Positions 15,608 through 49,988 of a stretch of DNA of 64,000 nt are shown here, piece by piece. The DNA comes from Hydrocarboniphaga sp. (GTDB taxonomy: Bacteria > Pseudomonadota > Gammaproteobacteria > Nevskiales > Nevskiaceae), in assembly GCF_965279055.1 (NCBI RefSeq), contig NZ_OZ257125.1, positions 4,271,322 through 4,335,321 on the forward strand. The letters run 5' to 3'. The position numbers and the translations under genes are program-made. Below the pieces are notes generated by a model. That model ran no database searches, was not told the DNA's origin, and was given only the letters and a program-made list of their open reading frames with translations. Position 1 is the stretch's first letter, and the number at the start of each line of letters is the position of its first letter.

Positions 15608-17122
<1,515 letters not shown>

Positions 17123-17289: not shown

Positions 17290-17520
17290 TTAAACGATCT
17301 CGCCGATCACGGTGCCGACGTCGAGCACGTCGCCGGCGGGGAGTTTCTGCACCAGCTTGCCGGACGCAGGGGCTGCGATCTCCTGCACCGACTTGCCGGT
17401 TTCCAGCGAGTAGATCGGATCGCCTTCCTTGACCTGGGTGCCGTCGGCGACCAGCCATTCGGTCAGCGTGCCCTCGGTCATGGACATTTCGAGTTTCGGA
17501 ATCGTCAGTACAGTCGCCAT
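17290..17520 (-). CDS. Stand-alone lipoyl-carrier domain
   Basis: 76 aa: IPKLEMSMTEGTLTEWLVADGTQVKEGDPIYSLETGKSVQEI; lipoyl-Lys hairpin ETGKS. Confidence 0.9.
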   Translation of the reverse strand: MATVLTIPKLEMSMTEGTLTEWLVADGTQVKEGDPIYSLETGKSVQEIAAPASGKLVQKLPAGDVLDVGTVIGEIV

Positions 17521-17548
17521 CTCGTTTGCGTTCCTTGACTAGCCTGAA

Positions 17549-19588
17549 TTAGTGCTTGAAAGCGACGATTTGCCGCACGCGCGCCGCGATGTCCTTGGCG
17601 TACGGAATCTGGTTGAACTCGACTTCGCGCGAATAGCCGATAGGCGCGAACACCGCGCCCAGGCGGCCCACCGGCGCCTTCAGCGTGGAGAACTGTTCTT
17701 CGCCGATCGTGCTGGCGATTTCGGCGCCGAAGCCGCCGAACTCGGTGGCCGCGTGCACCACCAGTGCACGCCGCGTCTTCTTCACCGAATCCAGTACGCG
17801 CGCATAGTCTATCGGCACCAGACTGCGCAGGTCGACGACCTCGCAGCTGATGCCCTCGTTCTGCAACTCGGTCGCGGCGGCCAGGCATTCGTGCACTTCC
17901 CAGCCGTAGGACACCAGCGTGATATCGCTGCCTTCGCGACGCACTTTGGCCACGCCCAGCGGGATGCGGTAGTCCTCGACCGGCACGTCGCCCTTGCTGC
18001 CGCGCAGCAGCTTGATCGATTCGAGGAAGATGACCGGATCCTCGTCGAAGATGCTGCTCAGCAGCAGGCCCTTGGCGTCGAACGGCGTGCTCGGCATGAC
18101 CACCTTCAGGCCTGGCACATGCGTGAACCAGGCTTCGAGCGACTGCGAATGCTGGGCGCCATTTCCGCCGAGGCCGCCGCCGACCATCATGCGGATCACC
18201 ATCGGCACGTGGGTCGCGCCGCCGGACATGAAACGCTGCTTGGCCGCGTGATTGAAGATCGGGTCCATGCAAACGCCGGCGAAGTCGTTGAACATGATCT
18301 CCGCGATCGGCCGCATGCCGACCAGCGCGGCACCGACGCCGCAACCGATGATCGCCTGCTCGGCGATCGGCGTATCCAGCACGCGGTCGGCACCGTACTT
18401 GGCCTGCAGGCCCTTGGACGTACCGAATACGCCACCCGGCTTGCCGACATCCTCACCGAACGAGAACACGCCCTTGTCCAGCTCGATCGCGGTGGCCTGC
18501 GCCTGGATCACCGCCTCCAGCATCAGCATGTTCTTGGTTTCGCCGGTCGGCTCGACCTCCGCCTCGCGCCGCGGATACTGGCCGCGGACCGGCACGTTGC
18601 CGACGTCGGCATAGACGTCGAGCAGCATCTCTTCTTTCGGGCACGACGGAGACGCCATCGCCTTGGCCATCGCGGCCTCCACTTCGGCGCGCGCGGCCTC
18701 TTCGATCTCGGCCAGCTGGGCTTCGGTGGCGGCGCCGGACTCGATCAGCAGCGCGCGGGTGCGCGGCACCGGCCAGGCCTCCTTGCCCGCGAGCAATTCT
18801 TCTTTCGGCGCGTTGTGATTGTCGCCGATGCCGGCATGCGGGCCGAGGCGATAGGTAGTGGCTTCGACGAAGATCGGGCCGTTGCCGGCGCGAATCTCCG
18901 CTATGACGTCCTTCATGCCGTTGTAGAACGCGGCCGGATCGTTGCCGTCGAGTTTCACGCCCTTGAAGCCGTAACCGGCGGCACGCGAGGCGAGGTCCTT
19001 GCTGGCGGTGTAGCCGGCGTACGGGGTGTATTCGCCCCACTGGTTGTTCTGGCACAGGAAGATCACCGGCAGCTTCCAGCTGCCGGCGAAGTTCATCGCT
19101 TCGTGCACGGCGCCGATGCTGGTGGCGCCGTCACCGAAATTGACGATGGTCACGCGATCTTCGCCGCGCGATTTGGCGGCGAAGGCCAGGCCGTTGGCGA
19201 TCGGTGCGCCAGCGCCGACGATGGCCGTCGTGAGCATCGAGCCCGAGGCCGGGTCGGAAATATGCGGCGCGCCGCCCTTGCCCTTGTTGACGCCGCCGAC
19301 GCGGGCCAGGGCTTCGGAGAACAGGCCTTCGAGATCCAGACCCTTGGCCACCTGGTCGTGGATGCCGCGATAGGTGGTCACCATGTAGTCGCGCTTGCTG
19401 GTCAGCTGCGAAATCGTCGCCGGGATCACTTCCTGACCCGTTGCCGGCCAGTAGGCAAACAGAAATTTGCCGGCCGACAGCCCTGCCTGGATGCCCTTGT
19501 CGACGGCGCGGATGCGCGCCATCTGGCGATAGATTTCGACCAGGGTCGCCGAATCGATAGCCGCGCCACTTCCGGTTTTAACTTGCAT
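17549..19588 (-). CDS. Fused E1alpha-E1beta ThDP-dependent 2-oxoacid/acetoin dehydrogenase
   Basis: GDGATS...QNNQW ThDP motif, then E1beta GEDVG, DTPIAEQ, HSQSLEAW, VVDLRSLVP; ATG 19588. Confidence 0.9.
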   Translation of the reverse strand: MQVKTGSGAAIDSATLVEIYRQMARIRAVDKGIQAGLSAGKFLFAYWPATGQEVIPATISQLTSKRDYMVTTYRGIHDQVAKGLDLEGLFSEALARVGGVNKGKGGAPHISDPASGSMLTTAIVGAGAPIANGLAFAAKSRGEDRVTIVNFGDGATSIGAVHEAMNFAGSWKLPVIFLCQNNQWGEYTPYAGYTASKDLASRAAGYGFKGVKLDGNDPAAFYNGMKDVIAEIRAGNGPIFVEATTYRLGPHAGIGDNHNAPKEELLAGKEAWPVPRTRALLIESGAATEAQLAEIEEAARAEVEAAMAKAMASPSCPKEEMLLDVYADVGNVPVRGQYPRREAEVEPTGETKNMLMLEAVIQAQATAIELDKGVFSFGEDVGKPGGVFGTSKGLQAKYGADRVLDTPIAEQAIIGCGVGAALVGMRPIAEIMFNDFAGVCMDPIFNHAAKQRFMSGGATHVPMVIRMMVGGGLGGNGAQHSQSLEAWFTHVPGLKVVMPSTPFDAKGLLLSSIFDEDPVIFLESIKLLRGSKGDVPVEDYRIPLGVAKVRREGSDITLVSYGWEVHECLAAATELQNEGISCEVVDLRSLVPIDYARVLDSVKKTRRALVVHAATEFGGFGAEIASTIGEEQFSTLKAPVGRLGAVFAPIGYSREVEFNQIPYAKDIAARVRQIVAFKH

Positions 19589-19671
19589 GCTCTCGTCCTG
19601 ATTCGTTTCGTTGGTCGGTGCGTCGATTCCGTAAGCCCGTGCAGCGCCCTGATCGATCGCCCGCCCTGAAG

Positions 19672-19687
19672 TCAACAGTGTAGTTCA
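19672..19687. promoter_or_regulatory. Candidate operator, near match
   Basis: tcAACAgtgtAGTTca in the gap upstream of the fused E1. Confidence 0.45.
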
Positions 19688-19715
19688 ATAGGCCCGGCAA
19701 AGCTGCGGCAGCGCC

Positions 19716-20474
19716 TCAGCTGAACTCGAAGGCCTCGAGCTGCTCGGCGAACGCCCGGGTAAACCGCGCTGCGTCGGCGCCGTTGATCACGCGGTGGTCG
19801 TAGCTCAGCGACAGCGGCAGCAGCTGGCGCAGCACCGGCCGGCCCTCGGCGTCCGGCAGGAAGCGATCCTGGGCGCGGGTGATGCCGAGGATCGCCACCT
19901 CCGGCGCATTGATGATGGGCGAGAAACTGGTGCCGCCGATATGGCCGAGCGAGGACAGCGAAAAACAGCCGCCGGACATCTCCGCGATCGACAGGCCCTT
20001 GGTCCGCGCCTTCTCGGACACGCGCGTCACTTCCTCGACGATCTCGCCGATGCTCTTCTTGTCGGCATCGCGCACCACCGGCACCAGCAGGCCGGTCGGC
20101 ACGTCGACGGCGATACCGATGTGGTAGTACTTTTTCGAGTAGATCGTGGCGCCGTCGGCACTCAGCGAACTGTTGAACACCGGGAAGCGCTGCAGGCAGG
20201 CCACCGCGGCCTTGATCATCGCCGGCAGCAGGGTGCGCTTGGCATCCGGATGCGCCGCGTTCCAGGCCTTGCGCCGCTTTTCGAAACCGGTGATGTCGGC
20301 CTCGTCGTTGTGCGTCACATGCGGAATCGTGCTCCAGTTGCGCTGCATCACGCGGCCGACGTAGTGCTGGATCTTGCCGACCGGGCGCGCCTCGACCGGG
20401 CCGAAAACCGACAGGTCGTCGGCCGGCCAGGGCAAGGGCGCGAGCGGCGCGGCAGGCGGTTTGGTGTCACTCAT
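19716..20474 (-). CDS. Dihydrolipoamide acyltransferase (E2), catalytic domain only
   Basis: IPHVT, IGIAVD, FSLSSLG, PIINAPEVAILG, LSLSYDHRVINGA; no lipoyl or PSBD domain. Confidence 0.9.
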   Translation of the reverse strand: MSDTKPPAAPLAPLPWPADDLSVFGPVEARPVGKIQHYVGRVMQRNWSTIPHVTHNDEADITGFEKRRKAWNAAHPDAKRTLLPAMIKAAVACLQRFPVFNSSLSADGATIYSKKYYHIGIAVDVPTGLLVPVVRDADKKSIGEIVEEVTRVSEKARTKGLSIAEMSGGCFSLSSLGHIGGTSFSPIINAPEVAILGITRAQDRFLPDAEGRPVLRQLLPLSLSYDHRVINGADAARFTRAFAEQLEAFEFS

Positions 20475-20854
20475 GTCTTGGTCTCTATGTTTGACAGGCG
20501 ATCGGGCGAGGCGGCGCTCGCGGCATCCATTTGCAGCACTTCCCAGAACACCGGCTGCGCGTCGCTGACCGCGGCGCTGCGCGGCATGCGCCCGCTGATC
20601 ACGCGCGCATTCATCTCGTCGATGAAGCCCTGCAGGTCATCGGTCTGGACTTCGAACACGGCGACGTAGCGATGCGCGTCCGGCGCCGGCCGCACCTGCG
20701 TCGCCGCCACCGCGCCGCGACGCCCCCAGATCACGCCCGGCAGCGCCATGATGTCGTCGAAGTGCCGGGCGATGAAGTCGCGATATTCCGCGTCCAGCCC
20801 CGGCGCCGCGTTGCTGTGAACCATGAACAGGTAACGGGACATGCGCGGCGACAT
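20471..20854 (-). CDS. EthD-like small alpha/beta-barrel hypothetical protein
   Basis: YLFMVHSNAAPGLDAEY...HFDDIMALPGV...RYVAVFEV; start 20854 or 20842. Confidence 0.65.
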   Translation of the reverse strand: MSPRMSRYLFMVHSNAAPGLDAEYRDFIARHFDDIMALPGVIWGRRGAVAATQVRPAPDAHRYVAVFEVQTDDLQGFIDEMNARVISGRMPRSAAVSDAQPVFWEVLQMDAASAASPDRLSNIETKT

Positions 20855-20859
20855 CGCGA

Positions 20860-21504
20860 TCAGGGTCGCGCCTGCGAGTTCAGCAGCTGCTCGCGTATCG
20901 CCGGGTCCAGCGGCGGCGCGCTGCCCTCGATCGGCATGTCGGTGCTGTTGATCACCAGCGCCAGCGTGCCGTAGCAGCCGAACAGGAACACCAGGTCGAG
21001 CATCTGCTTGTGGTCGTAGCGCCGCGACAGCCGCGACCAGCTCGCCGGCGTGATCCGCGACAGCGCGTGCAGCTCGTCGACGGCGCGCACCAGATCGGCA
21101 TCGCCGGCCGGCCAGCCGGCCGCGTCCGGGCCCTGGCGCAGCCATTGAATCTCGTCGTCGGAGAGGCCCGCGCGCTTGCCCAGGATCATGTGCTGCACCA
21201 GCTCGTATTCCGAATGCATCAGCCAGCTCAGCCGCAGGATCACGATCTCGCGATCGCGATACGGCAGGCTGCTGGCGCCGGCGACGTGGGCGTTCAGCGT
21301 CATGAAGGCCCTGGCCAGCGCCGGGTAATGGGCCAACAGGCCGAGCACGTTCATGCCGCGCACCTGGCGCTCGCCCGCGTTCCAGCCATTGATAACGAAT
21401 TCGTAACTCTTCGGAAAGGCCGCCAGGGCCTGTTTTGCCGCCTCATCCCAGTCCGATGGCAGCTGGGGAACAATGCGCGGCGACGCCGGATGATCCTGAG
21501 TCAA
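20860..21504 (-). CDS. Carboxymuconolactone decarboxylase/AhpD-like family protein
   Basis: REIVILR......SEYE..QH...GKRAGLS, DLVFLFGCY; TTG start after GGAGGAG. Confidence 0.8.
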   Translation of the reverse strand: MTQDHPASPRIVPQLPSDWDEAAKQALAAFPKSYEFVINGWNAGERQVRGMNVLGLLAHYPALARAFMTLNAHVAGASSLPYRDREIVILRLSWLMHSEYELVQHMILGKRAGLSDDEIQWLRQGPDAAGWPAGDADLVRAVDELHALSRITPASWSRLSRRYDHKQMLDLVFLFGCYGTLALVINSTDMPIEGSAPPLDPAIREQLLNSQARP

Positions 21505-21575
21505 GAAAGCTCCTCCGCGAGTCACGACGATGGTGCCGCCGGCAGGCGGAGCCGAGTCACTGACCTTGCTTATTA

Positions 21576-21591: not shown

Positions 21592-21711
21592 CTTGGATTG
21601 TATGCCAGCGCCGGCCGTCGAGGCAAAGCGGCGGCGCGACGCGAAATGTAGCGATCCGGCCATGCATTGTCGCGACCTCACCGCGCGAGACACCGATCGG
21701 CCCGGCCTTAT

Positions 21712-23184: not shown

Positions 23185-24645
23185 ATGAGCGGCACCCTGG
23201 AATCGCTCTGCGCCCGCGCGCTGGCGCGCGCGGCCGATCACGCGGCGATCGAGTACGAAAAGCGCTGGTACGACTGGGGCGAGATGCGCCGTGTCGCGCA
23301 GCGACTGCAAGCGCTGATGGACGCCAGCGGCAGCGACGGCCCGGTCGCCTTCGTGCCGCGCAACCGGCCCTCCGCGATCGCCGCGTTGTTCGGCCTGCTC
23401 GCACGAGGCCGCCAGCTGCGCATGGTCTACGCGTTCCAGTCACCGGCCGCGATCGCAGGCGATATCGGCAAGCTCGATGCGGCCATCGTCGTCGCCGCAG
23501 CCGAAGACTTCTCAGACGAGCTGCGCGCGGTGCTGCAACAGCGGCAGATCGTCGGCATAGCCCTGAGCGAAATGGACGCGGTCGCGATCGACACGATCCA
23601 GCGCGGCCGGCGCCGCGACAGCCGCGACACGCGCGTGCAGCCGCGCATCGATATCCTCACCAGTGGCACCACCGGTCCGCCCAAGCCTTTCAGCGTCAGC
23701 TACGAACTGATCGCGCGCCATCACGTCGGCGCGCTCAGCGACTTGTCGCAGCAGCCACCGGCGCTGCTGTGCTTTCCGCTGGGCAACATCACCGGCATCT
23801 ATTCGACGATTCCGCCGCTGATCAAGGGCCAGCGCGCGGTGCTGCTGGATCGGTTCAGCGTCGCCGGCTGGCACGACTACGTGAAGCGTTTCCGCCCCAC
23901 GCACAGCGGCATGCCGCCGGCCGGCCTGCAGATGCTGCTGGACGCGCAGATTCCGCCCGAGGACCTGTCCAGCCTGCGCGCGCTGGGCACCGGCGCGGCG
24001 CCGCTGGATCCGAACGTGCAGCGCGCTTTCGAGGCGCGCTATGGCATCCCGATCCTGCTGTCCTACGGCGCCACCGAATTCGGCGGCCCGGTGTCGGCGA
24101 TGACCGCCGATCTGCATGCGCAATGGGGCGATGCCAAGTTCGGCAGCGTCGGCCGCGCGCTGCCGGGCGCGCGCCTGCGCATCGTCGACGAAGACAGCGG
24201 CGCACCGCTGCCGCCCGGCAGCGAAGGCCTGCTCGAAGTGGTGTCGCCGCGCATCGGCCCGGACTGGATCCGCACGTCCGACATCGCCGTACTCGACGCC
24301 GACGGCTTCCTGTTCTGCCGCGGCCGCGCCGACGGCGCGATCATGCGCGGCGGCTTCAAGCTGCTGCCCGAAGTCATCGAACGCGCGCTGCTGCTGCATC
24401 CGGCGATCTCGGCCGCGGCCGCTACCGGTATCGACGATGCGCGTCTCGGTCAGGTGCCGGCGGTGGCGCTGCAGATCAAGCCGGAGCACGAGACGCCGAG
24501 CGTCGCGCAGCTGGAGGCGCATCTGCGCGCCCATCTGCCGGCTACGCATATTCCGCTGCACTGGCGCTACGTCGACGCGCTGCCGCGCACACCGTCGTTC
24601 AAGGTCGACCGGCCGGCGTTGAAACGCCTGTTCATCCGCGACTGA
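23185..24645 (+). CDS. ANL-family acyl-CoA synthetase
   Basis: TSGTTGPPK, YGATE, RTSD, GRAD, TPSFK. Confidence 0.88.
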   Translation: MSGTLESLCARALARAADHAAIEYEKRWYDWGEMRRVAQRLQALMDASGSDGPVAFVPRNRPSAIAALFGLLARGRQLRMVYAFQSPAAIAGDIGKLDAAIVVAAAEDFSDELRAVLQQRQIVGIALSEMDAVAIDTIQRGRRRDSRDTRVQPRIDILTSGTTGPPKPFSVSYELIARHHVGALSDLSQQPPALLCFPLGNITGIYSTIPPLIKGQRAVLLDRFSVAGWHDYVKRFRPTHSGMPPAGLQMLLDAQIPPEDLSSLRALGTGAAPLDPNVQRAFEARYGIPILLSYGATEFGGPVSAMTADLHAQWGDAKFGSVGRALPGARLRIVDEDSGAPLPPGSEGLLEVVSPRIGPDWIRTSDIAVLDADGFLFCRGRADGAIMRGGFKLLPEVIERALLLHPAISAAAATGIDDARLGQVPAVALQIKPEHETPSVAQLEAHLRAHLPATHIPLHWRYVDALPRTPSFKVDRPALKRLFIRD

Positions 24646-27815: not shown

Positions 27816-29069
27816 ATGCCGGAAGCCTTCATCATCGACGCCGTGCGCACGCCGCGCGGCATCGGCAAAATCGGCAAGGGCGCATTGGCGCACATGCATC
27901 CGCAGCATCTGGCGGCGACCGTGCTCAAGGCGATCCAGCAGCGCAACGGTTTCGACACCCGCGACGTCGACGACGTGATCTGGGGCACCAGCGCGCAGAA
28001 GGGCAAGCAGGGTGGCGACATGGGCCGCATGGCGGCGCTCGATGCCGGCTACGACAAGAGCGTTGCCGGCGTCACGCTGGATCGCTTCTGCGGCAGCGGT
28101 CTGACCGCGGTCAGCTTCGCCGCCGCGCAGCTGAAAGCCGGCATGGAAGACCTGATCGTCGCCGGCGGCACCGAGATGACCTCGCAGATCGCGGCCATGC
28201 AGCAGGCCGAGGCCGCGGCCGGGCTCAAATCGCCGGGCCTGGGCACCGGCAACGCGCGGCTGCAGGCGCGGTATCCGCAGTCGCACCAGGGCGTCAGCGC
28301 CGACGCGATCGCATCAATGGAAGGCATCACCCGCGAAGCCCTCGATGCCTTCGGCGTCGAAAGCCAGCGGCGCGCCGCGCACGCGATCGCCAACGGTTAT
28401 TTCGACAAGTCCATCGTTCCGGTGTTCGATGAGGACGGCAAGCTGGTGCTGGCCAGGGACGAGCATCCGCGCGCCGACACCACGCTGGAAGGCCTGGCCG
28501 CGCTGAAGCCCTCGTTCGGCCAGATCGCCGACATGCCGATCGACGAAAACGGCAACACCTTCCGCAAGATCATCAACTCGGTCTATCCGGGCCTGAAGAT
28601 CGGCGCCTTCCATCACGCCGGCACCTCGTCGGGCAATGTCGACGGCGCCGCCGCGCTGCTGCTGGCATCCGATGCCTACGTGCGCAAGCACGGCCTGAAA
28701 CCGCGCGCGCGCGTGATCGCCACCGCCAACATCGGCGACGACCCGACGCTGATGCTCAACGCGCCGGTACCGGCCGCGCGCAAGATCCTGGCGCGCGCCG
28801 GCCTCACCGTGAACGACATCGACCTGTGGGAAGTCAACGAGGCTTTCGCCGTGGTGGTCGAAAAGTTCATCCGCGATCTGCATATCGACCGCGAGCGCAT
28901 CAACGTCAATGGCGGCGCCATCGCGCTCGGCCACCCGATCGGCGCCACCGGCGCGATCCTGATCGGCACCGTGCTGGACGAGCTGGAAAGGCGCGATCTG
29001 CGGCGCGCTCTGGTTACCATGTGCGCAGCCGGCGGCATGGCGCCGGCGATCATCATCGAGCGCGTCTGA
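27816..29069 (+). CDS. Acetyl-CoA C-acyltransferase (thiolase)
   Basis: DRFCGSG, NEAF, GHPIGATG, MCAAGG; ATG 27816 with AGGAG RBS. Confidence 0.92.
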   Translation: MPEAFIIDAVRTPRGIGKIGKGALAHMHPQHLAATVLKAIQQRNGFDTRDVDDVIWGTSAQKGKQGGDMGRMAALDAGYDKSVAGVTLDRFCGSGLTAVSFAAAQLKAGMEDLIVAGGTEMTSQIAAMQQAEAAAGLKSPGLGTGNARLQARYPQSHQGVSADAIASMEGITREALDAFGVESQRRAAHAIANGYFDKSIVPVFDEDGKLVLARDEHPRADTTLEGLAALKPSFGQIADMPIDENGNTFRKIINSVYPGLKIGAFHHAGTSSGNVDGAAALLLASDAYVRKHGLKPRARVIATANIGDDPTLMLNAPVPAARKILARAGLTVNDIDLWEVNEAFAVVVEKFIRDLHIDRERINVNGGAIALGHPIGATGAILIGTVLDELERRDLRRALVTMCAAGGMAPAIIIERV

Positions 29070-30382: not shown

Positions 30383-31606
30383 ATGACGCAGGTGATGAAG
30401 GGCGTACGCGTGCTGGAAGTTGCACAGTTCACGTTCGTGCCCGCGGCCGGCGCGATCCTCGCCGACTGGGGCGCCGACGTGATCAAGATCGAACATCCGG
30501 TGCGCGGCGATACCCAGCGCGGTTTCATCAACATGGGCGGCATCGCGGTCGACCCGAACCGTAACCCGCTGGTCGAGCATCCGAACCGCGGCAAGCGTAG
30601 CGTCGGCATCGACCTCGCCACCGCCGAAGGCCAGGCGCTGCTCTACGAAATCGCCAAGACCGCCGACGTGTTCCTGACCAACTACCTGCCCAGCGTGCGG
30701 CAGAAGAACAAGTTCGACATCGAGCACATTCGCGCGGTCAATCCGAAGATCATCTACGCGCGCGGCAGCGCCTATGGCGACAAGGGCGTCGAGCGCGACA
30801 CCGGCGGCTTCGACGGCACCGCGTTCTGGTCGCGCAGCGGTGTCGGCTATGCGATGACGCCGGCCGAGATGGAAGGGCCGCTGTCGCAGGGCATCATGGC
30901 CTTCGGCGATTCGATCGGCGGCATGTTCATCGCCGGCGGCATTTCCGCCGCGCTGTTCAATCGCGAACGCACCGGTGAAGGCGTCGAGCTCGACGTGTCG
31001 CTGCTCAGCGCCGCATGGTGGGCTTCGGGCGCGAACATCGCGCAGGGTCTGGAAACCGGGCAGACCACGCGCAATTCGATGCCGACTTCCGGCGGTGCCG
31101 CACGCAATCCGCTGATGGGCAATTTCCGCACCGCGGACAACGGCACGATCAATTTGTGCATGGTCAGCCCGACCGGCTTGATCCGCGACGCCTTCGAGCA
31201 TTTCGGCATCCCCGAAGCCGCCGACGATCCGCGCTTCGCCGACGTCAAGACGCTGATCGCCAATTCCAAGGCGGCGAGCGATCTGATCGTCGCCGCGTTC
31301 GCCAAAAAGCCGTTCGCCTACTGGCGTCAGCACCTGAAAACGATGAAGGGCCAGTGGGCGCCGATCCAGAGCCTGCTCGATCTGACCTCGGACGAACAGG
31401 CCCTGGCCAACGACATGCTGGTGGAGCTCGAAGGCGACGACGGCAAGCCGTTCAAGGTGGTGCGCGGCCCGGTGCAGTTCAATCACGAGCCGCTGAAGAC
31501 CACGCGCGCGCCGCAGGCTTCGGAACATACCGAAACCTTTCTGATGGAGCTGGGCCTGGACTGGGATCGCATCGAACAGCTCAAGGCTTCCGGCGCGATC
31601 GCCTGA
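30383..31606 (+). CDS. Family III CoA-transferase (CaiB/BaiF)
   Basis: GADVIKIEHP..GD, NRGKRSVGID, ADVFLTN, catalytic-Asp region FGDSIGG. Confidence 0.9.
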   Translation: MTQVMKGVRVLEVAQFTFVPAAGAILADWGADVIKIEHPVRGDTQRGFINMGGIAVDPNRNPLVEHPNRGKRSVGIDLATAEGQALLYEIAKTADVFLTNYLPSVRQKNKFDIEHIRAVNPKIIYARGSAYGDKGVERDTGGFDGTAFWSRSGVGYAMTPAEMEGPLSQGIMAFGDSIGGMFIAGGISAALFNRERTGEGVELDVSLLSAAWWASGANIAQGLETGQTTRNSMPTSGGAARNPLMGNFRTADNGTINLCMVSPTGLIRDAFEHFGIPEAADDPRFADVKTLIANSKAASDLIVAAFAKKPFAYWRQHLKTMKGQWAPIQSLLDLTSDEQALANDMLVELEGDDGKPFKVVRGPVQFNHEPLKTTRAPQASEHTETFLMELGLDWDRIEQLKASGAIA

Positions 31607-31646
31607 TCACCGTCGCATTGAAAAAAACAAAGACGTCGAGGAATCC

Positions 31647-31937
31647 ATGAAAGCGGGAAGCAAACTCAAGAGCGCGGTGTGCGATACCGAGGTGATGGTC
31701 ATCAAGGGCGCCGATGTCGCACTCGAATGCGGTGGCGCACCGATGGCCGCGGATCGTCCGGCCGAGCGCGCCGCGATCAATCCGGCGTTCGCCGAAGGCA
31801 CCAAGATGGGCAAGCGCTACGTCGACGCCAGCGGCGCCGTCGAACTGCTGTGCGTGAAAGCCGGCGCCGGCTCGCTGTCGATTGCCGGCGTCGCGCTGCA
31901 GCCCAAGGACGCCAAGCCGCTGCCTTCTTCCGACTAA
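31647..31937 (+). CDS. Small conserved hypothetical protein with internal duplication
   Basis: 96 aa, two similar halves, 3 Cys, C-terminal KPLPSSD; 10 nt upstream of an acyl-CoA ligase. Confidence 0.8.
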   Translation: MKAGSKLKSAVCDTEVMVIKGADVALECGGAPMAADRPAERAAINPAFAEGTKMGKRYVDASGAVELLCVKAGAGSLSIAGVALQPKDAKPLPSSD

Positions 31938-31947
31938 GGCAGCACCG

Positions 31948-33441
31948 ATGAATATTGCGCTGATCCTGCAGATGGCGGCCGACGCCGAGCCGGACCGCAT
32001 CGGCCTGGTCTGCGATGGACGACGCTGGTCCTACGGCGCGTTGCTGCAGGCCGCACGCGGCGCCGCGCAGGCGATCACCGATGCCGGTTGCCAGTACGTT
32101 GGCCTGCTCGACGAAAGCAGCGAGGCGGCATCGATCGCGCTGTTCGGCGCGGCGCTCGCCGGCGTGCCCTACGTGCCGCTGAACTATCGCCTCGCCGACG
32201 CCGATCTGGCGGCCTTGCTGCTGCGCATCGAGCCGGCTTATCTGATCGGCGACGTCGCACGCGTGCAGCGGCTCAACCCGGGGGCCGCGCACAAGACGCG
32301 CTCGCGCGCGGACTTCGTCGCCGAGGCCGAAAAGCTCGGTGAAACCGCATCCGCCGACGAGCAGGAAGGCGAAGGTATCGCCGCGCAGATCTTCACCAGC
32401 GGCACCACGGCGGCGCCGAAGGCGGCGCTGCTGCGCCACGCCAACCTGCTGTCGTACATTCTCGGCACGGTCGAATTCGGCGCGGCTTCGGAAGACGAAG
32501 CGGCGCTGGTCTGCGTGCCGCCGTATCACATCGCCGGCATCGCCGCGCTGCTGTCCTCGATCTACGCGATGCGCCGCATCGTGCTGCTGCCGGCTTTCGA
32601 TCCGGACACCTGGTTGACACTCGCCGCCACTGAGCGCGCCAGCAACGCCTTCGTCGTGCCGACGATGCTGTCGCGGATCATCGCCAGCATCGACGCCGGG
32701 AATGCGCCCGATCTGTCGTCGCTGCAGTCGATCGCCTATGGCGGCGGCCGCATGCCGCTGGAGCTGATCGAGCGCGCGCTCGTGCTGTTCCCGGCCACCG
32801 GCTTCACCAACGCCTATGGCCTGACCGAAACCAGTTCGACGATCGCACTGCTCGGCCCCGAGGATCATCGCAGCGCGCAGTCGTCCAGCGACTCGGCGGT
32901 ACGCGCGCGCCTGGCCTCGGTCGGCCGTCCGCTGCCGACGGTCGAGATCGAAATCCGCGACGAAGAAGGCCGCGTGCTGCCGGCCGGCGAGCGCGGCGAA
33001 ATCTACGTGCGCGGCGAGCAGGTCTCCGGCGAATACCGCGGCCGCAGTGCGCTCGACGCACAGGGCTGGTTCCCGACGCGCGACGCCGGCTACATCGACG
33101 CCGAGGGTTATCTGTTTCTGGCCGGCCGCGCCGACGACGTCATCGTCCGCGGCGGCGAGAACATCTCGCCCGGCGAAATCGAGGACGTATTGACCACGCA
33201 CCCGGCGGTCGCCGAATCCGCTGCGGTCGCGATCCCGTCAGTGGAATGGGGTGAAGCGGTCGGCCTCGCGGTCGTGACCAGGCCGGGCTATGCCGCACCC
33301 GGCGAGCCGGAACTCAAGGCGCTGATCAAGGAGCGCCTGCGCTCCTCGCGCGTGCCCGAGCGCATCGTCTTCGTCGACGCGCTGCCGTACAACGAAATGG
33401 GCAAGCTGCTGCGGCGCGAGGTGAAGAAGCTGTTCGGCTGA
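31948..33441 (+). CDS. ANL-family acyl-CoA synthetase
   Basis: TSGTTAAPK, YGLTE, TRD, GRADD, NEMGK; ATG 31948. Confidence 0.9.
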   Translation: MNIALILQMAADAEPDRIGLVCDGRRWSYGALLQAARGAAQAITDAGCQYVGLLDESSEAASIALFGAALAGVPYVPLNYRLADADLAALLLRIEPAYLIGDVARVQRLNPGAAHKTRSRADFVAEAEKLGETASADEQEGEGIAAQIFTSGTTAAPKAALLRHANLLSYILGTVEFGAASEDEAALVCVPPYHIAGIAALLSSIYAMRRIVLLPAFDPDTWLTLAATERASNAFVVPTMLSRIIASIDAGNAPDLSSLQSIAYGGGRMPLELIERALVLFPATGFTNAYGLTETSSTIALLGPEDHRSAQSSSDSAVRARLASVGRPLPTVEIEIRDEEGRVLPAGERGEIYVRGEQVSGEYRGRSALDAQGWFPTRDAGYIDAEGYLFLAGRADDVIVRGGENISPGEIEDVLTTHPAVAESAAVAIPSVEWGEAVGLAVVTRPGYAAPGEPELKALIKERLRSSRVPERIVFVDALPYNEMGKLLRREVKKLFG

Positions 33442-33581: not shown

Positions 33582-33650
33582 CGGCGGGCGCGACCCGCCC
33601 TACAAAAGCGGATGGCATCACACGGCGGGTCACGCCCCGCCGGCTTTTTG
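33582..33650. terminator. Paired GC hairpins, possible terminators between convergent genes
   Basis: GGCGGG..CCCGCC followed by ACAAAAG, and CGGCGGG..CCCGCCG followed by CTTTTT. Confidence 0.45.
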
Positions 33651-35261
33651 CGGCCCATGAAACCGCGGCCGTTGTGCCAGCCGTTTCGCCACCTCCGGAT
33701 AACGCTCCGGACGCAGGTTGCCGTACATCGAGATGCGCAGCGACTCCTCGGCGAAACGCCGCGCCAGCGGCGCCAGATCCTGAGTCGCACCGTATTGCGC
33801 GCGCGCCCACACCGGCCACAGGAACACACCGGCGAGCGTAATCACCGACAACACTTCGGTATCGACGTTGTCCTGCGACAGCGCGGTGGAATCGAAGCGC
33901 TCCGCCGAGCTGCGGTATTCACGCCAGAACAGATCGCGTGCCGGCTCCGGCGACGACAGCACATTCAGCAGCCAGGCGCGGCACAGCTCCGGGTTGTCCA
34001 TCGCGAAACCGGCGAGCCGGTCGCTCAAGGCCGCGACGTCGACCGAGCCGACCTTGCGGTCCTTGGTGGCGCCGGCGGGCCCGAACACCGCCTGAAACAG
34101 TTTCTCCGATACGCCGACCGCGGCCGCCGCGATCAGCTGGTCGCGCGTCTTGAAGTGCTGGTATGCAGTGCCGCGATTGACGCCGGCAATGCGCGCCACC
34201 TCGGCCAGGCTCAGGCCTTCGGGGCCGTCGTGCGCCAGGCAGCGTCGCGCCGCCTGCAGGATCGCTTCCCGCGTGCTCGCGGGGTCCGGCGAACGGCGCG
34301 GCTTGCGCGCTGACGCGGCGCGTTTCCGCACCGGCCGCGACCCTGGTGATGAGTCCCGCAATCTGATGGCACGACTCGCACTCGTACGCGAGGGCCGCAG
34401 CAGCGACTGCTGCGGCGTCGCACCGCCGAGCAGCTCCAGCTCACAACTCGAGTTGTAGGCCGACAGCAGCGCGGCGAGCTGTCGCTGCAGCTGCGCCAGC
34501 GACACGGAGCCGCGCCCGTCCACGGCCGCGGCGGCGATGGTCCGGTTCATGCGCTCGACCTGCGCGCCGGTCCAGCGCTGGCGCAGCTTCAGGCCGCGCT
34601 GGCGGATACCCGCGTCGGCGCAGGCCGGTGCAAACGAGGCATCGGCGGCGATTGTCTCGTCGGCCATCAGGCTACCGATGCGGCCCGGCACCGCGGCGAT
34701 CAGCGCGGCGACGAATTCGACCGCCGACGCCGCAGCGCCGGCGTCGTATAGCTGCGCAAATGCGTAACGGCTGCGCCGCTCGACCGCGACGATCAGCTGG
34801 TAGCGGCGTTTTTCGCCGAGTTGCGCGCTGCTCAGGTCGAAGCACAGCCCTTCGGCAGACCCGGCCGCAGCCTCGTCGCCGCTCGCGGGCAGACGCGAAA
34901 TGCCGTGCCGCTGCAGGCAGCGGTGCAGCGATGAACGGCTCAGCTGCGGAATGAAGCCACGCAGAGCCTGCAGACAGCCGTCGAGCGGCAGGCGCAGATG
35001 CTGGCGCAAGGCGACGACGATGCCCTCCTCGCGCAGGCTCAGGGCCGAGGAGCGCGGATCGCGCGGGCCCGGCTTGCGATCGTCCGGCGATGCACGGCGC
35101 CGCCATTTGGCGACGGTTTTCGGATTGAGCCCGTAACGCAGGGCCAGCTGGCGAATGCTGTCGTCACTGTGCCGGATCGCATGCCGTACTTCGGCGGGGC
35201 TACGCCGCAGCTGCTTCATCGATCGCACCCGATCAGGATTGGACAGGGTCTTTTGTACCAT
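33630..35261 (-). CDS. IS481-type transposase (HTH + RNase H/integrase core) fused in frame to a TetR-family regulator
   Basis: aa 1-290: RYGLNPKTVAKWRRR, GPRDPRSSALS, LPLDGCL..L...IPQLSRSSLHRCLQRHGISRLP, QVERMNRTI, AYN...L.G.TP (IS481 hallmarks). aa 319-543: TREAILQAA...GLSLAEVARIAGVNRGTAYQHFKTRDQL (TetR). One uninterrupted frame. Confidence 0.88.
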   Translation of the reverse strand: MVQKTLSNPDRVRSMKQLRRSPAEVRHAIRHSDDSIRQLALRYGLNPKTVAKWRRRASPDDRKPGPRDPRSSALSLREEGIVVALRQHLRLPLDGCLQALRGFIPQLSRSSLHRCLQRHGISRLPASGDEAAAGSAEGLCFDLSSAQLGEKRRYQLIVAVERRSRYAFAQLYDAGAAASAVEFVAALIAAVPGRIGSLMADETIAADASFAPACADAGIRQRGLKLRQRWTGAQVERMNRTIAAAAVDGRGSVSLAQLQRQLAALLSAYNSSCELELLGGATPQQSLLRPSRTSASRAIRLRDSSPGSRPVRKRAASARKPRRSPDPASTREAILQAARRCLAHDGPEGLSLAEVARIAGVNRGTAYQHFKTRDQLIAAAAVGVSEKLFQAVFGPAGATKDRKVGSVDVAALSDRLAGFAMDNPELCRAWLLNVLSSPEPARDLFWREYRSSAERFDSTALSQDNVDTEVLSVITLAGVFLWPVWARAQYGATQDLAPLARRFAEESLRISMYGNLRPERYPEVAKRLAQRPRFHGPQKAGGA

Positions 35262-43838: not shown

Positions 43839-44990
43839 TCAGCCTTCGGCTTCCACGGTGTAGCGCGACGAGTAGCGCTCGAAGCGGCCGCGCAGCTCGT
43901 CCGGCGTCAGGCCGTATTGCGCGAGCTTGTATTCGTGGCGGCCGAACTTGTCCTGCGGATTGTCGTTGATCCAGTTCGTCATCGCGGTTTCGGCCTCGGC
44001 GGTGTAGTCGTCGCCGAGCGCCTTGTAGAGCCCGCGCATGGTTTCGATCGGCTGACGCATCAGGTCGGCGTAGTGCACGTCGATGACCTTGTCCTCGCCG
44101 AACTTGTCGCGGAAATTCATGATCCGCTCGGCGTGCTCCACCGCCTGGAACGAGCAGTTTTCGCCGAGCCACTTCGCGTCGACGCGGCCCATGAACGCAT
44201 TGTGCGACAGCGACAGCAGGCTGCAGAACGAGCCGGTCGCGGTCAGCGGGTCGCGGTGCGTCCAGACGAAGCGCGCATCCGGATAAACCTTCAGGATCGT
44301 CTCCAGCCACAAGGCGTGCGAGGGTTGCTTGAGGTTCCACACGCCCGGCGCATCGGCCTGCAGCAGTTGCAGGAAACGCTTGTGATACTCGTAGGTGGAT
44401 GTCAGGTCAGCCTGGAACAGCCAGTCGCGATAATTCGGCAGCACGCCGCGCGATTCCCAGACCAGGGCCTTGAAGTCCTGCATCACGAAGAACATGCACT
44501 CGTTCGGATAGATCGCCGAGTTGCGGTAGTACTTGCCCATCTCCGGACGCGCCGCGAGCATCTGGCGCTCGGCCTCGAGCCGCGCGAGCGCGCGCGGATC
44601 GGTGAACAGCGTGGCGCGGGTCGGCGGCGGGATCGGGTCGTCGATCTCCCAGGTCAGCGGCGAGCGCCGGTTCGGGTCCGCGGCGAGCAGGTTGCTGAGC
44701 AGCGTGGTGCCGGTGCGCGGCACACCGAAAACGAACACCGGGCGCTCGATTGCGCGCTTGAGCAACTCCGGCCGCTGGTCGAGATAAGCCGTGGTTTTGA
44801 GCCGCGTCGCCAGCGCGCCGACGACGCTGCCGCGGACGCGCTCGAGACCGGCCTCGGTATACGTGCAGGCGTTGACGTCGCCGAGAAACACCTCGAGACC
44901 CTCGTGAAAGCTGTCGCTGTCGAAGCGCTCCAGCTGCGTCGCCTTGCGGGCCTGCTCGACCAGTTCGTCTGCGACCATTTTCTGCGCCAT
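43839..44990 (-). CDS. PAPS-dependent sulfotransferase (second paralogue)
   Basis: GVPRTGTTLL, LKQPSH, THRDP...GS, KFGRHEY; ATG 44990. Confidence 0.85.
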   Translation of the reverse strand: MAQKMVADELVEQARKATQLERFDSDSFHEGLEVFLGDVNACTYTEAGLERVRGSVVGALATRLKTTAYLDQRPELLKRAIERPVFVFGVPRTGTTLLSNLLAADPNRRSPLTWEIDDPIPPPTRATLFTDPRALARLEAERQMLAARPEMGKYYRNSAIYPNECMFFVMQDFKALVWESRGVLPNYRDWLFQADLTSTYEYHKRFLQLLQADAPGVWNLKQPSHALWLETILKVYPDARFVWTHRDPLTATGSFCSLLSLSHNAFMGRVDAKWLGENCSFQAVEHAERIMNFRDKFGEDKVIDVHYADLMRQPIETMRGLYKALGDDYTAEAETAMTNWINDNPQDKFGRHEYKLAQYGLTPDELRGRFERYSSRYTVEAEG

Positions 44991-45205
44991 GTCTTTGCTC
45001 TCTCCACGATTCGGGCCGATCGGCGGCGGCTCCCAGGGCAAACGATCTTCGACCGCCGCCTCGTCGCCCGCAACGGCGTTCGGATACGACGACCGGACAC
45101 AATGTCGCGGTCGGGACGTTGCCGTCGCCGGCACCGCGGCGTCTATGGACCCGGCATCGGCGGCGGGCGATGCTGGCGCCCGTCCGTTCATGCAAGCCTG
45201 GGTCA

Positions 45206-45802
45206 ATGAGCAGCCGAATCCCGCAGAAGCCGCGCAGCCGCAACCCGGTACAGACCCGTGCCCGGCTGCTGCAGGCGACGATCGACCTGGTCGCCGAAAA
45301 AGGCGCCGACGCGCTGTCGCTGAAAGAGGCCGCGCGCGTGGCCAAGGTCAGCCGCGGCGTCGCCTACCAGCATTTCGACGACCGCGATCACCTGCTGCGC
45401 GAGGCCAAGGCCTGGCTGTCGGAGCGCCTGAGCGAATCGCTGCATGGCGAACTCGACCCGGCGACGATGGAGGATCGCGTCTACGGCGTGGCGCGGCAGG
45501 TGATGAACAACCGCGAGGCCTCGCGACTGCTGATCGCCGACGCGATGGCCGGCAAGGATCTGCAGAAAGACCATCCGCTGTACCGCCTGCTGCTCGACTC
45601 GCTGGAGCGGTTCAGGACCAGTGGCAATGCGCGCCAGGACATGGATCTGGAAATCCTGTCCTCGATCCTGGTCGGAGTGGTCGCTTCTATCATCATGCTG
45701 AGTTATCAAGACAACAGTGATGTCGATAAGATGGCGCGGCGGTTTACTGCCGAATGGACTCGCATCCTTCGCCACGGGATTTTCGTGGAGCCTCCGGCCT
45801 GA
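45206..45802 (+). CDS. TetR-family regulator
   Basis: TRARLLQATIDL...LSLKEAARVAKVSRGVAYQHF; ATG 45206. Confidence 0.9.
   Translation: MSSRIPQKPRSRNPVQTRARLLQATIDLVAEKGADALSLKEAARVAKVSRGVAYQHFDDRDHLLREAKAWLSERLSESLHGELDPATMEDRVYGVARQVMNNREASRLLIADAMAGKDLQKDHPLYRLLLDSLERFRTSGNARQDMDLEILSSILVGVVASIIMLSYQDNSDVDKMARRFTAEWTRILRHGIFVEPPA
45711..45726. promoter_or_regulatory. Candidate operator inside the 3' end of tetR
   Basis: acAACAgtgaTGTCga, exact match, in an AT-rich coding stretch. Confidence 0.45.
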
Positions 45803-45845
45803 GAACGCAGGCCGGCACCAGGCGGGCGCCGCAACGCAGCACGGA

Positions 45846-45877
45846 ATCGCTAATGGACACTGATGTCCATTAGCGAT
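45846..45877. promoter_or_regulatory. Perfect 14-bp inverted repeat centred on the operator motif
   Basis: ATCGCTAATGGACA-ctga-TGTCCATTAGCGAT; no U-tract, so an operator is favoured over a terminator. Confidence 0.65.
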
Positions 45878-45954
45878 AGCATCTGCTTCAATATCAGTTC
45901 AAAAGAACGCCGGGCCTGTTACGCCACGGCGGCGACGCTGAGGAGAGAGGCACC

Positions 45955-46257
45955 TTGCTTACACCCGCGATCCGGCCGTCAAGGTCGAATTTCAAGCGCC
46001 GCAGCCCTGCCAGCCTCGTTCTGGGCAGCGGCCAGGTGCCGGCCTTGTGGTCATCGCTGTTGTCCATAGCGCCCGCCGGTGCGGCCGAGCGGTTCACCGA
46101 CCATCGGCAAATGGGTCTGAAGTATTCGCCGCTGACTCAGATCAACGCCGGCAACGTCGATCAGTTGCAGGCCGCCAGGGAAGTCCATACCGGCGGGCAC
46201 GGCATGTACGGCTCCCGCAAGGGTAATCCGGTGATGGCGCACCAGCTCAAGCGTTAG
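45955..46257 (+). pseudogene. N-terminal remnant of a PQQ-dependent dehydrogenase
   Basis: YSPLTQINAGNVDQLQAAREVHTG at 46123-46194 matches the quinoprotein N-terminal motif; conserved Trp appears as Arg and the ORF stops soon after. Confidence 0.7.
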
Positions 46258-46329
46258 CGGGCAACTGGGGCGTGCGCCAGACGGCGTCTCGCACCCGATT
46301 AGAAAGATAAAGAGACAGCGAGAGGGAAC

Positions 46330-48933: not shown

Positions 48934-48986
48934 TCACTTCGCGGGGGAGCGGCAACGATCGCGGTCGTTGCCGCCGCAAGGGGGAT

Positions 48987-49027
48987 TGGCGGCGTCACCT
49001 GACGAGGTGACGCCGCCATTTTTTTTT
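48987..49027 (+). terminator. Rho-independent terminator
   Basis: 13-bp stem TGGCGGCGTCACC/GGTGACGCCGCCA followed by 9 T; a second hairpin lies at about 48949-48973. Confidence 0.9.
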
Positions 49028-49172
49028 AGGCGTGTGGCGGCGCGTCCCTGCCGCGTCATTGCGTCCCGCCATCGACATTGTTACGCGTTGCCCCGCACCG
49101 GTGGCTGGCCGACACTGCCTTGCATGACCGCCGGGTCAAAGCCACGGCGCGCACGCGACAGGAGAACGCAAA

Positions 49173-49958
49173 ATGGCAAAAGGTCTGTTCGACCTCGGCG
49201 GCAAGGTAGCGGTGATCACCGGCGGCAACAGCGGCCTGGGGCTGGGCTTTGCGCGCGGCATCGCCAGGCAGGGCGGCGACGTGGTGATCTGGGCACGCAA
49301 CGAAGAAAAGAATGCGAGCGCGAAGCAAGAGCTGGAAGCGCTCGGCGTGCGCGTCGCGACGCGAGTCGTCGACGTATCGTCGGAACAGCAGATCGTCGCC
49401 GGCTATGCCGCGGTGCTGAAGGACTTCGGCCGCGTCGACACGGTGGTCGCCAACGCCGGCCCGCCGCCGGCTTCGCAGTCCTCGCTGACCCTGTCCACCG
49501 AGGACTACCACCGGTTTCTCGACGTGGCGCTGCACGGTGCGTTCTACACCTTGCGCGAAGGCGCACGCGTGATGGTCCAGCGAGCGGAAGCCGGCGAACC
49601 CGGCGGCTCGCTGATCGCCTGCGGCAGCCTGTCGATGTTCAAGGGCCTGGCCGGCAAACCGCATTACGCCGGGTCCAAGGCCGCGGTCGGCGCGATCATT
49701 CGCGGCATGGCCGCGGAGTTCGGCAAGCACGGCATCCGCGCCAACGTGATCGCACCCGGCTACATCAAGACCGGCATGACCGGCACCGCCGACGAGCTCA
49801 GCCCGCTGGACAAGTACATGCTCGCCAAGAACGCGATCCCGCGGCCCGGCTACATGGCGGACTTCGAAGGTATCGCCGCGTTTCTGGCCAGCGATTCTTC
49901 CGCGTTCATCACCGGCGAGACCATCACGGTCGACGGCGGCGCGATGGTGATGATGTAG
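49173..49958 (+). CDS. SDR
   Basis: TGGNSGLG, ANAG, YAGSK. Confidence 0.9.
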   Translation: MAKGLFDLGGKVAVITGGNSGLGLGFARGIARQGGDVVIWARNEEKNASAKQELEALGVRVATRVVDVSSEQQIVAGYAAVLKDFGRVDTVVANAGPPPASQSSLTLSTEDYHRFLDVALHGAFYTLREGARVMVQRAEAGEPGGSLIACGSLSMFKGLAGKPHYAGSKAAVGAIIRGMAAEFGKHGIRANVIAPGYIKTGMTGTADELSPLDKYMLAKNAIPRPGYMADFEGIAAFLASDSSAFITGETITVDGGAMVMM

Positions 49959-49988
49959 CAGTGCCCGGCGGCAGACAGGAGCAAGGCG

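Follow-up and report, generated by a model that had tools for sequence, protein, structure and literature searches.

How can a 2-oxoacid dehydrogenase operate when the parts that normally travel together on one E2 polypeptide are encoded apart? Enzymes of this family are the textbook case of substrate channelling, in which a swinging arm is covalently tethered to an oligomeric core. The question is raised by a stretch of 64,000 nucleotides from Hydrocarboniphaga sp. (contig NZ_OZ257125.1, positions 4,271,322 to 4,335,321), hereafter the window. Its minus-strand run 17290-21525 consists of five closely packed genes, encoding a carboxymuconolactone decarboxylase (CMD) family protein, a small protein, an E2 catalytic core, a fused E1 and a lipoyl protein (Table 1). 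From comparison of sequences, we consider it rather likely that this operon encodes a dissociated, or 'untethered', 2-oxoacid dehydrogenase. In the proposed mechanism, the fused E1 with thiamine diphosphate would decarboxylate a 2-oxoacid supplied by the surrounding catabolic island and would reductively acylate the lipoyl group on Lys43 of the carrier. The loaded 76-residue carrier would then diffuse to the separate E2 core, which would hand the acyl group to CoA, and the resulting acyl-CoA would enter the co-conserved thiolase and beta-oxidation-like genes. Re-oxidation of the reduced carrier would fall to the cell's single housekeeping lipoamide dehydrogenase, much as free H-protein depends on the L-protein in glycine cleavage. 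That the carrier diffuses between E1 and the core, that E3 is shared and what kind of substrate is used are what we infer from the evidence below.

Pfam searches and the translations bore out the gene order and domain content reported in a preliminary description of this DNA. The E2 protein consists of PF00198 alone, and the lipoyl domain is a separate 76-residue gene product encoded beyond E1. Spacing was operon-like, with gaps of 5, 40 and 28 nt and a 4-nt overlap (ATGA) between the stop of the 127-residue protein's gene and the E2 start. In a window of 64-70% G+C, where real genes are distinguished by GC at the third codon position, all open reading frames (ORFs) of the operon were intact and showed high third-position GC.

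The preliminary description had allowed that a frameshift or misassembly might explain the split. This was checked and ruled out: the same arrangement is conserved in sister species G001, related operons exist elsewhere, and the junctions of those of type B differ. Moreover, a frameshift cannot join the E2 core to the lipoyl gene because E1 sits between them. That the split could be a sequencing or assembly artefact, or a gene set in decay, is hardly credible given a single-contig assembly with 99% completeness (5.07 Mb, 65.5% G+C), the intact ORFs, the conserved motifs, and public protein data, in which ~247-aa cores (≥70% identity) make up more than 120 clusters and 76-aa carriers more than 100. 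The preliminary description had also considered that orthologous clusters might carry a normal E2; no normal E2 was found among the core orthologues, every match at ≥70% identity being ~247 aa long. The split design is real and conserved, and occurs three times in this genome.

The carrier was identified by Pfam as an E2-type lipoyl domain (Biotin_lipoyl, PF00364, 47.5 bits over 71 residues). Its best NCBIfam matches were the lipoyl domains of AcoC, SucB and AceF, with biotin carriers far weaker. The match to the AcoC model NF011457 (64.5 bits) covers positions 3-77 of 372, that is, the N-terminal lipoyl part only, and the match to the pyruvate dehydrogenase (PDH) E1 beta model NF008854 covers the model's first 74 positions. 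GCV_H matched over only 35 residues with 22.5 bits, which leaves the carrier outside the H-protein family. In an AlphaFold2 model (pLDDT 85), whose top Protein Data Bank (PDB) folds were human and bacterial E2 lipoyl domains (TM ~0.9), Lys43 is predicted to lie at a hairpin tip, between strands 35-40 and 45-49. This Lys is invariant in a 32-sequence alignment (A1), and the motif ET(G/D/N/A)K(S/A/T), always with the Lys, was recovered in 103 of 120 close homologues. Given this homologue motif, Gly in place of Asp before the Lys is a family trait. The E-x-x-K acceptor motif and the flattened beta-barrel typical of E2 lipoyl domains are both recognisable in the modelled protein. The genome encodes LipA and LipB, and the carrier is presumed to be lipoylated.

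The E2 core retained the catalytic features expected of an acyltransferase of the PDH E2 (E2p) type. It aligned with the E. coli and Azotobacter vinelandii E2p cores at 219 bits, with the His/Ser/Asn motifs retained; the His of DHRxx(D/N)G and the active-site Ser are both present. Compared with these AceF proteins (PDB 1EAA, 4N72), the core can be aligned over its full length, starting with PWP..D.S.FG at its first residues, and shares DHRVING, the Ser and the CoA-side blocks, but it has neither lipoyl domains nor a peripheral subunit-binding domain (PSBD), is encoded as a separate gene, and differs at the C-terminus, which has a conserved W-L-x-x-Y/F-x-F. The closest full-length E2s are AceF proteins, at ≤57% identity. 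Across 121 relatives (~247 aa), SYDHRxING, CFxLSSLGHIGG and PIINAPEVAILG are each ≥95% conserved. The motifs ETGKS, DHRVING and YRGI, described earlier as atypical, are all present in the operon, and the epithet was only partly right: DHRVING is a normal E2p variant, not an atypical one, because SYDHRVING is also read in the solved A. vinelandii core. Public names of the core and carrier clusters are just 'E2 component', 'biotin/lipoyl-containing' and 'lipoyl domain-containing protein'.

Searches of five catalytic-only E2 cores (one from each of sets A, B and C of this genome, plus the Paraburkholderia and Diaphorobacter cores) gave no match to PF02817 (E3-binding domain, the PSBD) or to a lipoyl domain at E≤1; the remaining operon proteins gave no PF02817 match at E≤0.01. 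The absence of a PSBD argues against canonical docking of E1 and E3.

The E1 gene is a single ORF carrying E1_dh, Transket_pyr and Transketolase_C domains. Alignment with human, Geobacillus and Thermus E1, together with a family alignment, indicated that GDG...NN and the active-site His of both halves are retained, the latter within QHSQS in the beta half and within YRLGPHAG, aligned with YRYHGHS, in the alpha half. The thiamine diphosphate motif and catalytic His are thus shared with complexes that have a heterotetrameric E1 (Geobacillus PDH, Thermus and human branched-chain 2-oxoacid dehydrogenase (BCKDH), and human PDH), and the beta half is ~50% identical to Geobacillus E1 beta (285 bits). 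Unlike those complexes, the window protein has alpha and beta in one chain and bears the signature YRG(I/V)HD, and the PSBD that normally docks on E1 beta is missing from the system. Two signatures, YRG(I/V)HD and CKGKGG, characterise the entire E1 family associated with free lipoyl proteins in Alpha-, Beta- and Gammaproteobacteria. Orthologues of the fused E1 occur in G001, G015 and Halioglobus. In set B, E1 alpha and E1 beta share a frame, with one stop and four codons between them (L015:8609-10645; genome 2085608-2087644, minus strand). The fusion in set A, the window operon, may stem from loss of the single stop between E1 alpha and beta.

No E3 gene lies in the window, in agreement with the preliminary description. 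The only TIGR01350 lipoamide dehydrogenase over cut-off in the genome maps far from the operon, at genome 2606834-2608237. Two sub-threshold TIGR01350 paralogues were considered as a dedicated E3 and rejected: one is glutathione reductase and the other is an Lpd-like flavoprotein (L009:1501-2841; genome 3983221-3984561) that matches the uncharacterised PDB entry 3IC9 at 430 bits. The distribution of the 3IC9-type gene, present in 10 of 41 related genomes, does not track the split-E2 system: it was not found in G001, G012, G015, G019 or G021, all of which carry that system.

It had been speculated earlier that lipoyl redox cycling involves the CMD/AhpD-like protein. We found no support for such a role, because the CMD protein lacks a CxxC pair: it has a single Cys in 221 residues and CxxC nowhere. 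A link between AhpD and lipoamide is established in Mycobacterium tuberculosis, and a CMD-family gene heads the operon both here and in G001, where the orthologue (72% identical) holds the same position. It is nevertheless very improbable that the lipoyl protein acts chiefly as a dithiol redox partner of the CMD protein, in the manner of the mycobacterial AhpD-DlaT-Lpd relay. Besides the missing Cys pair, HSEYELVQH in the CMD domain was read, without alignment, as replacing the CxxC stretch, and no CMD gene stands beside E1-lipoyl in G015, Halioglobus or Haliea, nor in the type-B or type-C sets. CMD and the small protein jointly accompany the operon in this genus only. Homologues of the small protein were found directly upstream of an E2 core in G001 and in metagenome contig L124. 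As to the label 'EthD-like' given to it earlier, the 127-residue protein gave no Pfam match at E≤1, and its likeness to DUF4286/EthD clusters comes only from language-model features (Atlas feature score 0.94) and predicted structure (TM 0.77-0.82).

Six PF00198 domains were found in the genome, three in normal E2s and three catalytic-only. Set B (2.08 Mb) has the order E1 alpha, E1 beta, lipoyl, E2 core; a single in-frame stop divides its E1 genes, and its lipoyl gene shares 4 nt with the core gene, which is read in another frame. Set C lies at 4.21 Mb, upstream of the window by 57 kb, and comprises genes for TetR, E1 alpha, E1 beta, the lipoyl protein, a glutathione S-transferase, a P450 (on the opposite strand), the E2 core, SnoaL, a short-chain dehydrogenase/reductase (SDR) and an acyl-CoA dehydrogenase. 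A fourth, orphan 76-aa lipoyl gene (D-type; L017:8092-8322, genome 4062091-4062318) is shared by five species of the genus at 76-84% conservation. It has neither E1 nor E2 genes nearby and is flanked by TonB/ExbB/ExbD genes on one side and, on the other, by a pair consisting of a DUF2063 gene and an MbnB/TglH/ChrH-like gene.

The E1 alpha and beta sequences of sets A, B and C are mutual nearest relatives (42-60% identity), against 27-31% (alpha) and ~43% (beta) identity to the BCKDH-type E1 of the same genome. Cores A and B are 59% identical, and both are 50-55% identical to the AceF core of this genome. For core C, identity to every other core is ~29-35%, and the mitochondrial/alphaproteobacterial PDH E2 is the best-scoring model; because of this divergence and the different model, we conclude that E2 was split at least twice. 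In a quick maximum-likelihood tree with SH-aLRT support only, which omits the edge-touching loci L027, L042, L043, L048, L054, L061, L065, L069, L078 and L080, type A formed a clade (99), as did the type-B core group (99). All full-length AceF cores fell in a clade of their own (99), with the catalytic-only forms outside it and the base unresolved. In a library clustered at 50% identity, the top three matches were catalytic-only, and about 12 of the best 150 were of catalytic-only length. Two further E2 cores with short frames were observed. One, from Competibacteraceae (L081:5723-6445, 271 aa), was placed by the quick tree within the full-length AceF clade and may have been truncated independently; the other, from a Brevundimonas metagenome-assembled genome (MAG; L096:8001-8672, 241 aa), groups with the catalytic-only forms outside that clade.

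A survey of gene neighbourhoods, proposed as a check in the preliminary description, recovered the arrangement in G001 and related operons in Alpha-, Beta- and Gammaproteobacteria. The sister species carries the same CMD-small-E2 core-E1-lipoyl operon, with the small gene doubled, and three type-B operons in addition. Operons of the order E1 alpha-E1 beta-lipoyl-E2 core, with differing junctions, were found in G001, G021, Paraburkholderia sprentiae, Diaphorobacter and L126. Those of P. sprentiae and Diaphorobacter are on RefSeq plasmids, and Azospirillum B510 has E1 alpha-E1 beta-lipoyl. Neighbours at the Paraburkholderia, Diaphorobacter and Azospirillum loci include Rieske oxygenase, KstD-like, P450, SDR and NTF2 genes as well as acyl-CoA ligase, hydratase and acyl-CoA dehydrogenase genes. 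The split system is rare: a close free carrier was present in just 1 of 399 other genomes in an even sample of the class (G291 left out) and in 9 of the 24 genomes of this genome's family. Tallies over 40 relatives take in G027, a negative. Pattern-based scans of genome and metagenome contigs returned mostly generic AceF, with four and about six close loci, respectively.

The lipoyl gene is almost always beside E1, abutting it in more than 20 loci (directly downstream of E1 beta or, in a Steroidobacter MAG, upstream of a fused E1), and the position of the E2-core gene varies. Orthologues of the type-A core (70-77% identity) lie directly downstream of orthologues of the window thiolase (also 70-77%) in G012, G019, Halioglobus, Haliea and metagenome contig L125, often with a TetR gene next to them and with no E1 or lipoyl gene within 6-8 kb. 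In G015 the E2 core is on one contig and an operon of methylmalonate-semialdehyde dehydrogenase (MMSDH), E1 and lipoyl genes is on another. All genomes with a type-A or type-B core (12/12) also hold a free lipoyl gene beside E1, and three members of the genus have the orphan D-type carrier only and no catalytic-only E2. Such linkage would be expected if carrier and core both acted in trans. Because the split recurs, the carrier gene stays with E1 while the E2 core can be elsewhere, and catalytic residues are kept, the comparative evidence supports the earlier prediction that a diffusible lipoyl carrier would replace the tethered arm and serve an unusual 2-oxoacid or acyloin from the pathway of the island.

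The same neighbourhoods also bear on a different reading, in which the type-A core is a stand-alone CoA-dependent acyltransferase working with the thiolase and its adjacency to E1 is incidental. The chloramphenicol acetyltransferase-like fold of the E2 core is used by many acyltransferases, thiolase-(TetR)-E2 core units occur without adjacent E1 or lipoyl genes in the five places just named, and the core in a Steroidobacter MAG lies beside F420 biosynthesis genes. We nonetheless regard this reading as improbable: every genome with a type-A core also has an E1-lipoyl module, the His/Ser/Asn motifs and the surrounding E2p blocks are nearly invariant, type-B operons have a core of this kind immediately after the lipoyl gene, and in this genus the core is translationally packed with E1 and the lipoyl gene.

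G012, G019 and Haliea each have a C-type E1-lipoyl module and, as their sole catalytic-only E2, an A-type core, so that one core may serve several E1-carrier modules. By analogy with the type II fatty-acid synthases, we put forward, as a tentative idea only, a 'type II' dissociated form of lipoyl-dependent oxidative decarboxylation, in which E1-matched free carriers would share a trans-acting, loosely specific core and the housekeeping E3. Were this true, new 2-oxoacid or acyloin specificities could be added to catabolic islands without a new megacomplex.

Which pathway would such a system serve? Orthologues (58-83%) of many window genes cluster around thiolase-E2 core and E1-lipoyl in Halioglobus, G019 and L125. 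They include genes for the thiolase, a family III CoA-transferase, two acyl-CoA ligases, MMSDH, a trio of SDR, Zn-dependent alcohol dehydrogenase (Zn-ADH) and alkylsulfatase-like proteins, a sulfotransferase, P450 and SDR proteins and a KstD-like flavoprotein. From this shared clustering we conclude that the system is one step of a catabolic island for a hydrophobic, CoA-activated substrate. Orthologues of the acyl-CoA ligase at 23185..24645 (58-72%) stand beside E1-lipoyl in G001, Halioglobus G042 and Haliea G043 and near thiolase-E2 core in G019, and orthologues of the 30383-33441 genes (70-83%) stand beside thiolase-E2 core in Halioglobus, G019 and L125. MMSDH shares the G015 operon with E1-lipoyl and lies 3-4 kb from thiolase-E2 core in G012 and G019. 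The substrate is probably a 2-oxoacid (or acyloin) from a conserved lipid or alicyclic catabolic island.

Table 1. Features of the window discussed in the text, in window coordinates
Feature	Position	Strand	Evidence
Free lipoyl carrier protein, 76 aa, acceptor Lys43 in ETGKS	17290..17520	-	PF00364, 47.5 bits
Fused E1 alpha-beta, 708 aa, thiamine-diphosphate dependent	17549..19675	-	E1_dh 51-344, Transket_pyr 385-558, Transketolase_C 574-686
E2 catalytic core only, AceF-type, 252 aa	19716..20474	-	PF00198, 238.6 bits, residues 27-250 of 252
Small DUF4286/EthD-like alpha+beta-barrel candidate, 127 aa (123-127 aa)	20471..20854	-	Atlas feature and structure look-alikes
CMD-family (carboxymuconolactone decarboxylase/AhpD) protein, heading the operon	20860..21525	-	PF02627, 42.9 bits
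Possible sigma-70-like promoter 5' of the CMD gene (weak evidence)	21597..21626	-	1 match against 0.6 expected from shuffles
CoA-acylating MMSDH, convergent with the operon, conserved companion	15608..17122	+	TIGR01722, 694.9 bits against cut-off 448.5
AMP-forming acyl-CoA ligase	23185..24645	+	PF00501/PF13193
Thiolase (acetyl-CoA C-acetyltransferase subfamily)	27816..29069	+	NF004682, 736.7 bits against cut-off 568
Family III CoA-transferase, 96-aa protein and second acyl-CoA ligase; conserved part of the island	30383..33441	+	Pfam

The main alternative to the 2-oxoacid reading turns on the nature of this substrate. In it, E1 would be an acetoin-dehydrogenase-like C-C lyase that cleaves an acyloin into an acyl-lipoyl carrier and an aldehyde, the aldehyde being oxidised by MMSDH. 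In its favour, the lipoyl domain of AcoC is what the carrier matches best in NCBIfam, the MMSDH gene belongs to the E1-lipoyl operon in G015 and is convergent or close by in the window, G012 and G019, and the P450s, SDRs, Zn-ADHs and alkylsulfatase-like gene of the island could yield hydroxyketones. AcoC, however, carries its lipoyl domain on an alpha/beta-hydrolase-type E2, and the acetoin operon includes its own E3 (AcoL), whereas the E2 here is a PF00198 core with the lipoyl domain free and no E3 linked. In addition, E1 scored best with PDH E1 alpha and beta models, with no acetoin-specific NCBIfam model among its matches, and MMSDH, with its own well-defined class of substrates, could simply be part of a valine- or propionate-like branch. 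The acyloin explanation appears the less likely of the two, although the sequences are compatible with both. What the window system shares with AcoA/AcoB/AcoC/AcoL is an E1 alpha/beta, lipoyl-dependent acyl transfer in a catabolic operon and an aldehyde dehydrogenase nearby.

Several points weigh against the proposed untethered 2-oxoacid dehydrogenase. The PSBD, docking site of canonical E1 and E3, is missing in this system, a lack that bears on how efficient a purely diffusional cycle would be. In most other genera the E2-core orthologues pair with thiolase, not E1, and this pairing leaves room for a carrier-independent function. The CoA-acylating aldehyde dehydrogenase beside E1 would also fit acyloin cleavage. 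Lipoylation is assumed for a carrier with G/E, not D, before the Lys. Finally, the co-occurrence counts come from related, non-independent genomes and were used qualitatively only.

How does the system compare with those already known? Two defining features of canonical 2-oxoacid dehydrogenase complexes, an E2-borne lipoyl domain and a PSBD, are missing here, while the E1 domains with GDG...NN and the catalytic His and Ser of the E2 core are present. The best functional analogy is the H-protein of glycine cleavage, a free lipoylated carrier between separate enzymes that is re-oxidised by the shared E3 (the L-protein), although the window carrier is an E2-type PF00364 lipoyl domain and differs from it in family and in details of fold. 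The window system would work most like a hybrid of PDH and the free-carrier logic of glycine cleavage. In corynebacterial OdhA, the E2 core of 2-oxoglutarate dehydrogenase lacks a lipoyl domain of its own and borrows those of E2p. Both cores would then take their acyl-lipoyl substrate from a lipoyl domain on another polypeptide, as is predicted for the window core; in OdhA, however, the core is fused to E1 and the lipoyl domains sit on a full-length E2p, whereas here core, E1 and carrier are three proteins. The E1 beta of alphaproteobacterial type with an N-terminal lipoyl domain also shows this domain as a mobile module, but in that case the domain remains part of an enzyme chain, and the system has a normal E2.

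A full-text literature search found no published account of a free E2-type lipoyl carrier with a catalytic-only E2; the sole relevant mention found was a 2014 comparative study that names a class of 'single domain' lipoyl proteins in archaea (PMC3904984). Particular to the present case are three paralogous sets and an orphan carrier in one genome, the fused E1, and an unlinked, apparently shared E2 core. A conserved untethered version, in which the carrier is free, the core stands bare without a docking domain and E3 is presumably borrowed, bears on how far the tether and PSBD docking are needed, and would supply a minimal modular system for enzymology and engineering. The paralogous sets and unlinked core make this lineage suited to the study of carrier specificity and sharing, and the system draws attention to steps, as yet unassigned, by which bacteria degrade lipids or alicyclic compounds. 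A documented parallel comes from steroid catabolism, where EdcC, of the indolepyruvate:ferredoxin oxidoreductase family, converts the 2-oxoacid ring-cleavage product of estrogen to a CoA ester that enters beta-oxidation-like steps (PMC7793797). Its gene cluster also contains those for a P450, for acyl-CoA dehydrogenases and for a TonB-dependent receptor (PMC7793797). EdcC may be a functional counterpart of the window system, though one from an unrelated enzyme family that works without lipoate.

Further genes of the window and of related loci were observed around these units. A divergent gene for a major facilitator superfamily transporter lies upstream of the operon. Window positions 43839-52285 encode a sulfotransferase, an SDR, a Zn-ADH and an alkylsulfatase-like metallo-beta-lactamase protein, which are conserved (62-75%) beside E1-lipoyl and thiolase-E2 core in Halioglobus (L018/L120, L019); there are hints that the island handles a sulfated or secondary-alcohol lipid. 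TetR genes stand directly beside E2-core orthologues in G012 (L100:9011-9631), G019 (L101:8823-9482) and the metagenome contig (L125:5337-5966), and their products are 39-53% identical to the TetR half of an IS481-TetR fusion in the window. One of the TetR paralogues of the window (33630-35261, 45119-45802) may regulate the thiolase/E2-core unit.

Orphan components were seen as well. In the gammaproteobacterial Steroidobacter MAG (L053:4628-8726), an orphan type-A core is divergent from the F420 biosynthesis genes, which encode a CofC-like protein and a fused CofG/H-type radical SAM protein. On a plasmid of Sphingobium sp. TomTYG64 (L115:10001-12817), a free lipoyl protein is encoded without E1; its gene is flanked by those for an alkene reductase and a '3-keto-5-aminohexanoate cleavage protein', followed by an acyl-CoA synthetase gene. 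One such plasmid was inspected, and the arrangement may recur in other Sphingobium plasmids with equivalent matches.

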